A stretch of DNA of 55,692 nt, from the IMG/VR virus record IMGVR_UViG_2693429768_000005; one strand, 5' to 3'. The first letter of the stretch is position 1, and every line of letters begins with the position of its first letter. Below are positions 36,109 to 54,535 of this stretch, one piece after another. Source of the stretch: a virus (lineage: Duplodnaviria > Heunggongvirae > Uroviricota > Caudoviricetes). A model generated the notes under the pieces. The model was given only the letters and a program-made list of their open reading frames with translations. It made no database searches and was not told where the DNA came from. A program made the position numbers and the translations under genes.

Positions 36109-36289
36109 CCCGCTTGTAAATTTTGACAGGCTTAATTGGCACGGCAGGTAATTCGCCTTCGTTTAATGCGCTTGCCATGCCTAATATTAAACGCGCCTCT
36201 GCACCAGTTACTTTCTTACACCATGCGCCGCCCGTTTTATCTTCGAACAAGATAACAGCAAACTGATCGTTTATTTCCAGCTTATCCAT
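36089..36289 (-). CDS. hypothetical protein (66 aa)
   Basis: ORF coupled to Q stop. Confidence 0.35.
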   Translation of the reverse strand: MDKLEINDQFAVILFEDKTGGAWCKKVTGAEARLILGMASALNEGELPAVPIKPVKIYKRGDDNEA

Positions 36290-37011
36290 TATTCACCCCG
36301 TGTCACTCGTTTGATTTCGTTATCAGCCCGCGCCTCTTCTTTGAACAATTCAGCAATGGCGTCTTCATAGAAAGCACGGTATTTCTTCCACCATGTTGAT
36401 CGGCTTACCGGAAAAACAAGCTGATTAACAGCCTGCCGGACAAGATCTACAGGGAAACGCGAGTACCCGCGCCCGCCGCAGTGCTGGCACGTTTTGAACA
36501 CTGGCATTTCCGCCGCTTCACTGGCTGCTTTATCCGGTACTTCGCCACGACCCTTGCATTGTTTACAATGATTGCGAACTGTCCCGTGGCCATTGCATTT
36601 TTTGCAAAGGTGTTTTTCTCCGTAGTCGTCAAACGTAAATTTATATCCGCCGCACTCCATACAGGTTTTTTCCGTCGCGGCGCTTTGGCAATAATCCCGA
36701 AACGCGAAAACGGCAACAAGAATAATAAGATCATTGCGTTTGGCCTCGTCCAGTTCCATAACGTATTCATAATCTTTTGCCATAGCTCTTAAACGCTCTG
36801 TAAGCAAAACTACGGCCTTATGTTTTTCTGCTTGTGATAGTTCCATCTTCCCTAAAAAAGCGCTGTAGCCAAGCTCTACGCGCGATTGCGCCATACCTGC
36901 AGCAGTTAGTGCATCAGTAGTATTAAGCGCATCCGGGGACGTGCCCCGGCTTTCATCCGACAAACGCGGTGACTTTGGGAAGTGGAATTTAAGAATTGAT
37001 TCCAGGTTCAT
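36289..37011 (-). CDS. Q: late-gene antiterminator Q (lambda type, zinc-finger)
   Basis: N-terminus MNLESILKFHFPKSPRLSDESRGT aligns with lambda Q MRLESVAKFHSPKSPMMSDSPRAT (from memory); CxxC clusters. Confidence 0.85.
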   Translation of the reverse strand: MNLESILKFHFPKSPRLSDESRGTSPDALNTTDALTAAGMAQSRVELGYSAFLGKMELSQAEKHKAVVLLTERLRAMAKDYEYVMELDEAKRNDLIILVAVFAFRDYCQSAATEKTCMECGGYKFTFDDYGEKHLCKKCNGHGTVRNHCKQCKGRGEVPDKAASEAAEMPVFKTCQHCGGRGYSRFPVDLVRQAVNQLVFPVSRSTWWKKYRAFYEDAIAELFKEEARADNEIKRVTRGE

Positions 37012-37193
37012 CTTTTGCCCTCGTAACGCGCAATAAGTTTCTTGCGATCAGATATTGCTTGCGCCAACTTTCTTTCAAGCTCTTTAAGTGCAAGCAATTC
37101 TCGCATGTGGAAAGCCTGTATTTGTCGCACAGTCTCTAAATCATGCTCGTCGCGCTGAATATCTATTTGCAGATCTTTAATTTCGTTTTTCAT
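37008..37193 (-). CDS. hypothetical coiled-coil protein (61 aa)
   Basis: ORF between rusA and Q. Confidence 0.35.
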   Translation of the reverse strand: MKNEIKDLQIDIQRDEHDLETVRQIQAFHMRELLALKELERKLAQAISDRKKLIARYEGKR

Positions 37194-37597
37194 TTGTCAC
37201 CCCATATATTAGTTTCGTATTCACCAATATCCGGTAACAGGTCGCCGCGTTCGCGAACTTTAATAAACAATCGCCCGCCTTTTACCTTCCGGCAGCGAAC
37301 AATTTTTATTGCGTCGATTTGTCCGTCATCCTTCCAGAACTCTGCATAAGTAAGACTATCAAAAAGGCATTTGGGGATATTATCCAGATCTCTGGTTCGG
37401 TTATCCGGCGGCGCGGCATGAATGGTAATTGCCAGTCGGCAAGATAGGCTGATGTTTAAATTTAATAGCTCGATGATGTCTTTTACTTGCTCCCGGTATT
37501 CTTTCCCAACCTTGCTGATATAGTGAAAACCTCGTGAATGTCGGTAATAGCGGTTATTAGATGGCGGGTAAGGTAGGCTAAAAGAATATTCATTCAT
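37190..37597 (-). CDS. rusA: Holliday junction resolvase RusA
   Basis: 135 aa; RusA family features recalled from memory; typical nin-region position. Confidence 0.8.
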   Translation of the reverse strand: MNEYSFSLPYPPSNNRYYRHSRGFHYISKVGKEYREQVKDIIELLNLNISLSCRLAITIHAAPPDNRTRDLDNIPKCLFDSLTYAEFWKDDGQIDAIKIVRCRKVKGGRLFIKVRERGDLLPDIGEYETNIWGDK

Positions 37598-38199
37598 GCT
37601 GCCTTTCTCCTTAAGGCGTCTAATTTAGCCTGATAGACTTTTATGATCTCCTTACATTCTTCTATCGTCCATTTGTGAGTTTCGTTGTTGTTCTCCAGCG
37701 CCACCACCCTGGCGAGGCCAATTTTTCGAATCAGCGCCGGGCGATACCCTCCGATGTTGCCGTCTAGTGTCTGGTTGCAGTGCCTACATTGCTTGTGGAC
37801 GTTATCTTCATTGAAGCGAAGGTGTCCGGCGGCGGCTACAGTCCTATAATGGCCCGCATCGTATCCGCATTGCTCACCGTAATAAGTCCCGCAGGATATA
37901 CACGGCAAACTCGCGTCACGCTCGCGGATATAGGCATTAAATACCGCTTGCGCCTGCTTTAACCAATAGCTACGCGGATTTAACTGCTTCCGCTTCCGGT
38001 TGCGTTCTTCCCTCTGGCTATCACGGCGTTTCTTCCGCTCCATAGCCTTCATAGCCTTCTCACGGTCGCGGCATAGCTGGTCAAACTTCAGTTCTTCCAG
38101 ACATTCATCGCTGCACCACGTTTGATTATGGTATTTAGGCTCAAAAAAAACGCCGCAGCATTTGCAACGGCGTCTTATGGTTTTTTTAGGGTTCTGCAT
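37594..38199 (-). CDS. ninG: NinG/Rap recombination protein
   Basis: Cys/His-rich protein similar to lambda NinG; start set at ATG after GGGGTGG. Confidence 0.8.
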   Translation of the reverse strand: MQNPKKTIRRRCKCCGVFFEPKYHNQTWCSDECLEELKFDQLCRDREKAMKAMERKKRRDSQREERNRKRKQLNPRSYWLKQAQAVFNAYIRERDASLPCISCGTYYGEQCGYDAGHYRTVAAAGHLRFNEDNVHKQCRHCNQTLDGNIGGYRPALIRKIGLARVVALENNNETHKWTIEECKEIIKVYQAKLDALRRKAA

Positions 38200-38213
38200 A
38201 AAAACCACCCCGA

Positions 38214-38390
38214 TTATTTTTGATTCTCTGTTTCGTTCAGCCTTTCGGCGTGTCCGGCCCTTAGCCAATGTTCTAAGCATTCGTTGCACTCGTTATAGCC
38301 TCCTTTCTTCGTGCTGCATACATTGCACATTGCACGCATAACGCTCTCTCGTTCATAGTCGTCATGCCATTGGTAATTATCAAAAGACAT
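38214..38390 (-). CDS. small Cys4 zinc-ribbon-like protein (58 aa)
   Basis: internal ATG after AAAAGGAGAGAG; CxxC...CxxC. Confidence 0.4.
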   Translation of the reverse strand: MSFDNYQWHDDYERESVMRAMCNVCSTKKGGYNECNECLEHWLRAGHAERLNETENQK

Positions 38391-53071: not shown

Positions 53072-53486
53072 ATTTGAGATAGTCAACGACGCCGTGAAAG
53101 AAAACGCTATCAGGCAGATAAGAGAGATCCAGCCTGATAGCAAAAGCCCGCTGATAATTACCATCCAGGAGAAAACCCGCTCGCTAAGCCAAAACGCGTT
53201 GCTTTGGGCGCTGTTAACCGACATTAGCGATCAGGTTAATTGGTACGGTAAGAAGCTGTCGCCGGAAGACTGGAAAGCGGTATTTACTGCCGGGCTTAAG
53301 AAATATGGCGTCGTCCCTAACCTGGATAAATCCGGCTTTGTTGTATTGGGGACATCAACCAGCCGGATGAGTAAATCAGAATTCAGTGAACTAATCGAGC
53401 TGATCTACTCGTTCGGCGCTGAACATGATGTTCAATGGTCTGGCGATACGAAATTAAACGAGGAATTCATAAAACGCTGGGGGTAA
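53058..53486 (+). CDS. ninB: NinB (Orf-family recombination mediator)
   Basis: aligns to lambda NinB: ...IQEKTRSLSQNALLWALL.DIS.QV.W.G...VPNL...GFVVLG.STSRM...EF.ELIELI..FG. Confidence 0.8.
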   Translation: MRQIRFEIVNDAVKENAIRQIREIQPDSKSPLIITIQEKTRSLSQNALLWALLTDISDQVNWYGKKLSPEDWKAVFTAGLKKYGVVPNLDKSGFVVLGTSTSRMSKSEFSELIELIYSFGAEHDVQWSGDTKLNEEFIKRWG

Positions 53487-53488
53487 TA

Positions 53489-53665
53489 ATGGCGCGTTAT
53501 TACATGGCTAAACCTACAGGAATTTTGTATAAGGTTGATGGCGAATATGTTTATTACTTCCACAACCAGGCGCGGGAGTGGCGATTGTGTCACGCGCACT
53601 TCAAGCACGAAATAGAAAATCACCCTGAATACTTTATCAAAGTTGACAATGTAACGGTGGCGTAA
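53489..53665 (+). CDS. hypothetical protein (58 aa)
   Basis: ATG 3 bp after ninB stop. Confidence 0.35.
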   Translation: MARYYMAKPTGILYKVDGEYVYYFHNQAREWRLCHAHFKHEIENHPEYFIKVDNVTVA

Positions 53666-53666
53666 T

Positions 53667-54317
53667 ATGGCAAATAAAACACCTCGTGCAATAGGCACAA
53701 TGTTCCACCGCTTCCGTGGTGATATTCAGCCTTTTGAAGTAACCACGTTTTCAAGTTATTACGATTTTGGGACGGAGTATTACGCCGGATCTAAGGTAGG
53801 CGGTGAATCTTATACGCTGATGGCTAATACGTGGCGCTTTGTGCGTTACTCTGAAAAGGATGGTGACGGTATGAATAAAGAAAGTGAAATCATTGATGAA
53901 TTAATCGAAGATGAGCGCCATGATTGCGATGCGCCGGAAGTTACGGAATGGAAACCAGGAGAAAAGCCGCCGTGCGGCGTGTGGCTTGATTGTATTGGAT
54001 TAGCAAGTGATAGAGTGATTGATGTCGTTAAGTTTTTCTACCTGGGCGATAAGTGGTCTATTGCTCACAGTAAGTTAGAAACGGGTATAGAAACACCGAT
54101 TGCATGGAAACAATACTCATACCGCATTCACATTGACCCGAAAGAAAAAGCAATGACACGAATTGCGTTTGCGCTGGCTGTTGAGGTTATTGGTGGAGAT
54201 GCGGCAAAAGAGATTAACTTTAACCGCGACAACGAATTTTCGCGCGATTGGCGCAATATGGCAAAAGCCATTATTAATGGCGATATTCCTTTTACTAATT
54301 ACAATGGTGATGAGTAA
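53667..54317 (+). CDS. hypothetical protein (216 aa)
   Basis: ORF; no domain recognised. Confidence 0.4.
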   Translation: MANKTPRAIGTMFHRFRGDIQPFEVTTFSSYYDFGTEYYAGSKVGGESYTLMANTWRFVRYSEKDGDGMNKESEIIDELIEDERHDCDAPEVTEWKPGEKPPCGVWLDCIGLASDRVIDVVKFFYLGDKWSIAHSKLETGIETPIAWKQYSYRIHIDPKEKAMTRIAFALAVEVIGGDAAKEINFNRDNEFSRDWRNMAKAIINGDIPFTNYNGDE

Positions 54318-54535
54318 TGGATAAGATCGGGACAATACTTATTAACCGTGAGCAAGTGCAAAAAATGTTAGGCGGGCTTAGCAAGTCCGCCTTTTTTAAG
54401 CTCGTTAAAAAATGGAAAGAAGCGGGAACTCCTTTCCCTGAACCTGTAAAGGGGATGCCAGCATTAAAGCGCGGGGGATCTCTTTACCGTTATCAGGACG
54501 TTATTTCATTTTGTAAATCGATGGGCTTCATGTAG
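54317..54535 (+). CDS. excisionase/AlpA-like HTH protein
   Basis: 72 aa; adjacent to integrase; HTH-like INREQVQKMLGGLSKSAFFKLVKK. Confidence 0.45.
   Translation: MDKIGTILINREQVQKMLGGLSKSAFFKLVKKWKEAGTPFPEPVKGMPALKRGGSLYRYQDVISFCKSMGFM

Follow-up and report, generated by a model that had tools for sequence, protein, structure and literature searches.

How can a phage that carries N-, Q- and cI-like control genes be regulated when these genes stand in an order different from that of lambda? This question is raised by the early-control region of IMG/VR virus record IMGVR_UViG_2693429768_000005, a 55,692-nucleotide (nt) stretch of DNA which we refer to, at its full length, as the window. A sequence-only reading of this DNA had proposed a rearranged lambdoid architecture, in which the N, recombination, nin and Q genes lie on the late-gene side of cI and the replication genes and ninB on the integrase side, with the late genes reached through the N-side transcript. 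We consider it highly probable that the region, taken as a whole, is best explained as the early-control half of an mEp021-like prophage in abgT, with the gene order conserved in its group and with stepwise control by the N-like protein Gp17 and by Q. Publications on mEp021 and its relatives (2023 and 2025) already describe this layout together with the N-like protein and all three nut sites, and the only parts that might be new are a promoter-like duplicate at nutR2 and an over-represented motif common to several promoter-like sites.

The gene order proceeding leftwards from cI was borne out by profile searches: N-like, Erf, SSB, Abc2, Dam, NinF/NinG, RusA, Q, lysis, terminase, head and tail. 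Rightwards, the initiator, antirepressor, helicase and NinB genes were found as described and the integrase gene is convergent with them; the "cro-like" label given to the first gene on this side did not hold and the "xis-like" label given to the last is weak, as discussed below. We compared the window with 45 related loci, comprising 42 IMG/VR contigs (retrieved with the N-like protein), mEp021, mEp010 and a prophage of Escherichia coli MIN12, making 46 sequences with the window included. The signed order of 12–13 marker genes was identical in 45/45 related loci, and the annotated records agree. The sequence-only reading had named an assembly error as a way in which the arrangement could fail. 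That the arrangement stems from such an error or from a chimeric contig is so improbable that we regard it as ruled out: no point in its support was found, and the same signed order is present in 42 independent IMG/VR contigs, in mEp021 and mEp010 and in complete E. coli chromosomes, 21 of which hold at least 80% of the region in one stretch. If the two inverted promoter-nut copies recombined, an alternative isomer would arise; none of the 46 sequences has it. The gene order is real, normal for mEp021-like prophages and already published; it is the fixed architecture of the described mEpimmI lineage and not a new rearrangement peculiar to this genome.

The window begins at the start codon of the host gene abgT (1-1446, + strand; PF03806 AbgT family, E-value 2.6e-197, profile positions 1-476 of 502), which is cut near its 3' end by the prophage and whose reading frame is completed by phage-derived sequence. 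It ends (position 55692) at the start codon of a tyrosine integrase gene (54493-55692, - strand; phrog_1, 2.1e-65; PF13356, PF22022, PF00589) with an Arm_DNA-bind_3 domain, which is transcribed inwards from the att end. Since abgT is truncated at one end and an integrase of the mEp010 type is at the other, we assign the window, by its sequence, as an mEpimmI (mEp021-like) prophage sitting in abgT. The integrase is 93% identical to the type II integrase of mEp010, and the type II integrases of mEpimmI phages direct insertion in the 3' end of abgT (PMC11893012). With the window closing exactly on the integrase start codon, neither the att site past int nor the leftover 3' piece of abgT falls within it. 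Using window positions 36000-55692 (19.7 kb) as the query, mEp010, mEp013, mEp044, mEp515, mEp554 and mEp021 had 89-90% nucleotide identity over 77-88% of the query, and the MIN12 prophage, which adjoins the host gene dgcM, had 97% identity to this region. The region was matched in 57 complete E. coli genomes, and 21/57 cover at least 80% of it in one collinear place.

According to its authors, mEpimmI is a Nus-dependent but non-lambdoid group, whose cultured phages need Nus factors, have a long non-contractile tail and did not form hybrids with lambda (PMC11893012). The sequence features by which the group is recognized were found in the window: overall similarity and synteny, insertion in one of ydaM, abgT or mppA with the matching integrase type (here abgT with a type II-like integrase), three nut sites, and a Rep021-type repressor with helix-turn-helix (HTH) and S24 domains. 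The last is encoded by the cI-type gene (Rep; 45554-46201, - strand; HTH_3, 5e-13, and Peptidase_S24, 4.4e-19), and its product is 96% identical to mEp021 gp15, 40% to P22 C2 and 33% to lambda cI. Rep021 confers immunity (PMC11893012), and the repressor of the window would be expected to do the same.

The N-like assignment also held. The gene (44762-45052, - strand) encodes a homolog of mEp021 Gp17, with 94% identity to that protein and a match to phrog_271 "anti-termination protein N-like" (4.7e-13); the match to Pfam N_peptide was sub-threshold (E-value 0.0084, 17 bits versus a cut-off of 27.9). Its translation (...NARERRRIKRE...) places arginines at positions 17, 19, 20, 21 and 24 in an arginine-rich motif of the N type, and arginines 17, 19, 20 and 24 are conserved in mEpimmI Gp17 (PMC11893012). 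As summarized in PMC11893012, citing Valencia-Toxqui 2023, mEp021 Gp17 is an early antiterminator whose sites of action are nutL, nutR1 (which precedes gp17) and, further downstream, nutR2, and the same summary gives Nus-dependent terminator read-through as published for this protein (PMC11893012).

We located three nut sites whose positions match those published (PMC11893012). The boxA sequence GCTCTTTAAAAATC has four copies at no more than one mismatch, versus 0.70 expected when up to two mismatches are allowed, and all four copies (46366, + strand; 45145, 45359 and 38451, - strand) are intergenic and lie along the direction of transcription. The first site, nutL (46366-46398, + strand), has an exact boxA GCTCTTTAAAAATC (46366-46379) and the boxB UCGCU-GCGA-AGCGA (46385-46398), and is conserved in 43 relatives. 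The second, nutR1 (45109-45145, - strand), with boxA GCTCATTAAAAATC (45145-45132) and boxB GCCAC-UGGAAGU-GCGGC (45125-45109), is situated about 93 nt upstream of the N-like start, a position conserved in nearly all relatives. The third, nutR2 (38419-38451, - strand), combines an exact boxA GCTCTTTAAAAATC (38451-38438) with the boxB GCGC-UGAAAU-GCGU (38432-38419) and is present in every relative that covers the position, and its outer boxB pair varies between G.U, A-U and C-G, a compensatory change. All three sites keep their positions in the relatives that cover them. A small hairpin with a GNRA-type loop follows boxA at each of them, and a boxA and boxB stand downstream of each early promoter, as they do in the N/nut system of lambda. 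As a separate observation, the nutR1 boxB stem at 45121-45122 reads GCCAC...GCGGC in the window versus GCCGC...GCGGC in 45/45 relatives; this single G-to-A change produces an A.C mismatch and could reflect either a sequencing error or a genuine weakening of nutR1 by mutation.

The candidate early promoters flank cI. On the N side, the predicted promoter TTGACT-17-TATATT (45402-45430, - strand) was the top promoter-scan match of the region (10/12); across 35 distinct relatives its hexamers do not change, whereas the spacer does, and a site AAGTATACAAAATGGA (45446-45431) abuts its -35 hexamer. On the replication side, the predicted promoter TTGATC-16-TAAACT (46261-46288, + strand) has conserved hexamers and a variable spacer among 14 diverse relatives, and the motif CCATTTTGTAAACTT overlaps its spacer and -10 hexamer. 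Directly after cI is terminator t1 (45523-45548, - strand), a conserved 7-pair stem (6 G-C) followed by a T-run, which corresponds to mEp021 TERM_1; terminators t1, t2 and t5 of mEp021 are given as experimentally demonstrated in the summary of PMC11893012, citing Valencia-Toxqui 2023.

The Q assignment was likewise upheld. The gene (36289-37011, - strand) matches PF03589 (1.8e-30), and over 238 amino acids (aa) its product is 35% identical to lambda Q and 34% to P22 gp23. Upstream of the first late gene, positions 31470-31392 (- strand) appear to hold a lambda-style late promoter and terminator, comprising a -35 hexamer TTGTAG (31470-31465), a 17-nt spacer, a -10 hexamer TAAAAT (31447-31442), a -10-like AACAAT (31434-31429), a hairpin (31413-31397) and a U-run (31396-31392). 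The -10 hexamer and AACAAT are 7 nt apart, a pattern that parallels PR' of lambda and P22 (TAAATT-tgactc-AACGAT). The element is nearly identical in mEp021 and MIN12, its fold has -19.7 kcal/mol (z -3.2) and its terminator corresponds to mEp021 TERM_5 (t5). It is most likely here that Q would act. We therefore part from the proposal that the late genes are reached through the N-side transcript: the placement of Q in the N-side unit agrees with the published mEp021 work, but because the late genes have their own lambda-like candidate promoter and terminator, and because a promoter-like element stands before nutR2, they are probably not simply reached by read-through. Most likely, the N-side unit would deliver Q and the late genes would have their own Q-dependent start.

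These elements suggest how the region may work, and in the scheme that follows steps one, four and five draw on sequence features here together with published mEp021 experiments, while steps two, three and six we infer from the sequence. When the repressor is lost, the 45430-45402 promoter would transcribe nutR1 and the gene for the N-like protein Gp17 (step one), and the same N-side transcript would continue through the genes for Erf, SSB, Abc2, Dam and others (step two). In the other direction, the 46261-46288 promoter would serve nutL and the genes for the initiator (which contains the origin), antirepressor, helicase and NinB, and transcription would end at the hairpins facing the integrase (step three). 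Gp17 with host Nus factors would then let RNA polymerase pass the N-side terminators (step four). As nutR2 is situated just before ninF-ninG-rusA-Q, after a terminator-like hairpin and a promoter-like copy, polymerase could be re-modified there before it meets the hairpin in ninG (step five). Lastly, Q would act at the promoter, pause and terminator of 31470-31392 and turn on the lysis and morphogenesis genes, on the same strand as far as att in abgT (step six).

How this order relates to those of lambda and P22 was addressed by tblastn of all window open reading frames (ORFs), about 17 of which match one or other phage. Erf, C2, the gp18 C-terminus, gp12, NinB, NinG, gp23 and Rz are shared with P22, and cI, NinB, NinG, Q, Rz/Rz1, M, L, K, I and J with lambda. 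Relative to P22 the signed order is -ninB, -gp12, -gp18C, -c2, -erf, +ninG, +Q (gp23), +Rz, which is exactly one reversal, and lambda agrees. The inverted block consists of the recombination genes, N, cI, the replication genes and ninB, with the integrase end and ninF-ninG-rusA-Q-late in place; ninB moved with the replication genes, and ninF and ninG were kept beside Q. The surroundings of the immunity region remain like those of lambda and P22, cI still being flanked by N and its promoter on one side and by the divergent promoter on the other. Formally, reversing the whole early block of the lambda/P22 order gives this layout, a statement meant as a description and not as a demonstrated event. 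The earlier proposal that two sets of modules had exchanged sides captures the swap in the distal partners of the early operons, but it was overstated, as the recombination genes are still with N and the replication genes are still across cI. Set against the lambdoid order (int-xis-recombination-N-cI-cro-replication-nin-Q-lysis-head-tail), in which the early block has the opposite orientation, the phage is non-lambdoid by order, yet lambdoid-like in its N, Q and cI parts.

Whether a lambda-like ancestor ever underwent such an inversion is a matter on which opinion can be almost evenly divided, and we give slightly less than even weight to the possibility that the order is instead an independently assembled mosaic, formed in a separate lineage that gained N-, Q-, nin- and tail-tip-type modules. 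Consistent with independent assembly, the N-like protein is confined among GenBank phages to seven mEpimmI phages, no other phage Q exceeds 40% identity to this one, tblastn gave no lambda or P22 match for the capsid, portal or terminase, the integrase is of a different type and runs in the opposite direction, and the mEpimmI phages occupy their own proteomic branch, consistent with a new family (PMC11893012). That eight shared genes differ from the P22 signed order by just the one reversal, however, and that ninB lies beside the replication genes while ninF-ninG lie beside Q, is what a single inversion would leave. The distribution of the N-like protein and the divergence of Q also indicate that the lineage is old and not the product of a recent shuffle, and a recent exchange of N or Q with lambdoid phages is ruled out on the same grounds. 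In any event the mosaic explanation bears on the origin of the region only, and would leave its identity and its working unchanged. Our overall explanation has to be held against several further points. N and Q form deep, group-specific branches and few ORFs match lambda or P22, so the order may have been assembled from modules and not by one inversion. The boxB hairpins are too small for folding statistics (z about 0). The generic promoter scan was not enriched over shuffles (26 found versus 37 expected), so the promoter calls rest on conservation patterns, and every promoter named here, the late one and the promoter-like element ahead of nutR2 included, was deduced from sequence and conservation. 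Finally, since no Cro, cII or cIII homolog was detected in the window, the logic of the switch may differ from that of lambda.

A further alternative concerns step five of the stepwise scheme, and starts from the element at the junction of the inverted block (38467-38550, - strand). This element comprises a site AAGTTTACATAATGG (38550-38536), a 36-nt hairpin or palindrome (38537-38502) and the hexamers TTGTTA (38494-38489) and TATACT (38472-38467) separated by a 16-nt spacer. The hairpin, with its U-run, is stable (-18.8 kcal/mol, z -5.8) and corresponds to mEp021 TERM_4. It is conceivable, though we lean the other way, that most Q expression starts at a dedicated promoter, 38494-38467, directly upstream of nutR2, and does not come from N-side read-through of approximately 7 kb, in which case there would be three early promoter-nut units, the third being a duplicate of the one on the replication side. 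In support of this possibility, 36 distinct relatives share the two hexamers and the motif but differ in the 5' half of the spacer. In addition, the junction element and the replication-side promoter-nutL module (46261-46382) look like copies of each other because they share an exact 16-mer TCCATTTTGTAWACTT and an exact 17-mer GCTCTTTAAAAATCCGG, and polymerase arriving unmodified from upstream would be expected to stop before the promoter-like element because of the stable hairpin and U-run there. The match to the promoter consensus is modest, however (9/12), such matches are not enriched in the region, and the conservation of the blocks could instead reflect protein binding or an RNA element. 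The authors of Valencia-Toxqui 2023 also reportedly concluded that RNA polymerase reads through from nutR1 to nutR2. In either case the expression of NinG, RusA and Q would depend on Gp17, since there is a terminator-like hairpin with a T8 run inside the 5' end of ninG (38169-38143); mEp010 has a predicted terminator (T7) in the same gene. The fuller form of the idea is the more doubtful one. Here 38550-38419, with its terminator-like hairpin, promoter-like copy and separate nut site, would be a third early transcription unit that arose as a duplicate of the replication-side promoter-nutL module at the inverted-block junction; Q would then be under a separate, immunity-controlled and Gp17-dependent promoter, and the motif shared by these sites (AAGTWTACAAAATGG / CCATTTTGTAWACTT; 14 copies in the window versus 0.5 expected) would bind one phage regulator of all these promoters.

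The distribution of the motif may be described in its own right. As the 9-mer CCATTTTGT it occurs at 14 sites (4304, 11900, 13982, 14740, 17811, 21382, 25314, 33745, 33770, 38472, 45432, 46187, 46275 and 50583), versus approximately 0.5 expected from shuffles. Several copies are intergenic and immediately 5' of a -10-like hexamer (TAAACT, TATACT, TTATAT), and others are probably coding or chance occurrences, e.g., the copy at 46187 inside the start of cI. At 33740-33780 (- strand), about 2.5 kb downstream of Q, a near-perfect inverted pair (TATACAAAATGGCA-N12-TGCCATTTTGTTATA) overlaps the promoter-like TTGTTT-16-TTATAT; it precedes a series of small ORFs extending to the candidate late promoter. 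Three further copies of the motif, two inverted and one direct, are present at 17781-17845, in the gap that immediately precedes the tape-measure gene, where they adjoin an opposite-strand ORF of 119 aa (18028-18387) that has no PHROG match. This ORF may encode an exclusion lipoprotein, as the published group carries such genes inside the structural cluster.

The remaining N-side genes are all on the minus strand. The recombination module (43245-44612) encodes Erf (43959-44612; PF04404, 2.5e-41), SSB (43540-43959; PF00436, 2e-23) and an Abc2-like anti-RecBCD protein within 43245-43655 (phrog_656, 2.4e-32), and a Dam N6-adenine methyltransferase gene follows at 39529-40077 (PF05869, 5.7e-51). 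The first gene past nutR2 encodes a small NinF-like protein (38214-38390; phrog_30170, 1.1e-42) that corresponds to mEp021 gp34 "putative NinF", and beyond it are the genes for NinG (37594-38199; PF05766, 1.7e-66) and the RusA Holliday junction resolvase (37190-37597; PF05866, 8.4e-15). Between the N-side promoter and nutR1 there is a near-invariant insert of 213 nt (about 45165-45380, - strand), present in 34/46 sequences and absent in 12, which carries the additional boxA-like sequence at 45359-45346 and a 37-aa ORF annotated as gp16 in mEp021. The insert had no Rfam match, and we rejected the candidate of a structured RNA in the leader ahead of the N-like gene, as the whole 341-nt leader gives a weak and unconvincing fold (z -1.6). 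Across the whole window no Rfam family reached its gathering score, a relaxed search around cI gave a chance-level match only, and no tRNA or tmRNA was found.

On the replication side, the first gene (46507-46761, + strand) encodes an 84-aa winged-HTH protein that matches phrog_4617 (6.4e-20) and phrog_391 "replication initiation O-like" (9e-9). This is the gene that had been called cro-like; its product is related to the N-terminal domain of O-type initiators, and no HTH protein of the Cro/CI type is encoded by the first gene divergent from cI. There are several alleles of it within one immunity group, and in two relatives (L008 and L046) it is fused to a longer initiator-type protein. On account of the initiator-domain match, the alleles and the fusions, we regard the 84-aa protein as a member of the replication module by homology. 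Separately, one phage group thus contains the initiator in both a split form, as in the window, and a fused form, as in these two relatives. The replication initiator itself (46765-47811, + strand), of the Lin1244_N/O type (Lin1244_N, 7.8e-11; phrog_428, phrog_345), has a C-terminus 36% identical to that of P22 gp18, and a putative origin inside its gene consists of four iterons GGGTCATGA with 11-nt spacing (47155-47195) followed by an A/T-rich stretch.

Further along on the same strand are the genes for an antirepressor-type protein of the Rha/KilAC type (48146-48919; PF03374, PF09669; phrog_63, 4.6e-42), an exonuclease-like protein, an HNH endonuclease, a DnaB-type replicative helicase (50612-52027; DnaB_C, 8.2e-76) and NinB (53058-53486; PF05772, 1.3e-46). 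The HNH gene (49969-50577) is one of two in the window, the other being at 13417-13890 (- strand) inside the tail cluster; both look like mobile insertions, and the CCATTTTGTAAAC motif is found near each (50583 and 13982). At the position of the former an HNH or homing endonuclease is present in mEp021 and mEp010 and absent from the MIN12 prophage. The last gene of this side encodes a 72-aa HTH protein (54317-54535, + strand) and overlaps the 3' end of int. That it is a small HTH gene beside int agrees with the "xis-like" label, but family support is limited to phrog_4745 "DNA binding protein" (E-value 3.5e-4), which is weak, and the protein had no Pfam or NCBIfam match. Hairpins with T-runs on both strands lie at 54370-54437, where this operon and the convergent integrase gene meet.

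The late genes, on the minus strand, begin with a holin gene (31171-31371), followed by the genes for endolysin (30679-31170) and Rz (30221-30691). The lysis genes matched phrog_20 (3.7e-20) and phrog_7 (1.7e-65), and Rz/Rz1 match those of lambda. Further left on this strand are genes for the small and large terminase subunits, portal, capsid, tape measure, tail tip, J and tail fiber. Between the lysis and terminase genes, positions 29333-29884 (- strand) encode a 183-aa protein with 34% identity to an unannotated stretch of P22 (13861-14193) next to sieA.

As a discovery the region matters little. Its value is as a worked example in which the lambda control parts (N/nut, Q and cI) still work with the early block turned round, an arrangement that puts N, Q and the late genes on one strand with replication running the other way. 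If the third-unit idea were true, Q would be set by a separate promoter and not by 7 kb of read-through only.

The closest known systems are the mEp phages (MH706966, PP180001-PP180005) and related E. coli prophages, which share gene order and strands throughout the region at 89-97% nucleotide identity. With mEp021 the window has in common Rep (96% identical), Gp17 (94%), the three nut sites and terminators t1, t4 and t5, and with mEp010 the abgT insertion and the type II integrase. The window differs from mEp021 in that a Rha/KilAC antirepressor takes the place of a zinc-ribbon protein, the first replication-side gene is of another allele, and there is no homolog of the gp33 cytosine methyltransferase, which in mEp021 is encoded just before nutR2 (window 38567-39100 versus gp32-gp33). 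Because gp33 is missing, the distance from nutR1 to nutR2 is 6.7 kb in the window compared with 7.9 kb in mEp021.

For the early modules the best match outside the group is P22, as indicated by Erf (53% identity), the Abc2-like protein, C2 (40%), the gp12 helicase (58%), the gp18 C-terminus (36%), NinB (about 52-53%), NinG (52%) and gp23 (34%), and also by the short predicted late leader RNA with a terminator close to the candidate late promoter. The differences from P22 are the one reversal of erf...c2-18-12-ninB, the type and direction of the integrase, and virion genes that are those of a long-tailed phage and not P22-like. Like lambda, the window has an N-side promoter and N across cI from the divergent promoter, boxA and boxB sites together with an arginine-rich N-type protein, an initiator gene that contains the iterons, a candidate late promoter with -10-like pause and terminator, Rz/Rz1, the tail-tip proteins M, L, K, I and J, and homologs of Q (35% identity), NinB (52%), NinG (52%) and cI (33%). 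Unlike lambda, its early block is inverted with respect to int and nin-Q-late, ninB is apart from ninF and ninG, there are three nut sites, Erf, SSB and Abc2 are present in place of Exo, Bet and Gam, a DnaB-type helicase takes the place of P, and the integrase is of another type and convergent.

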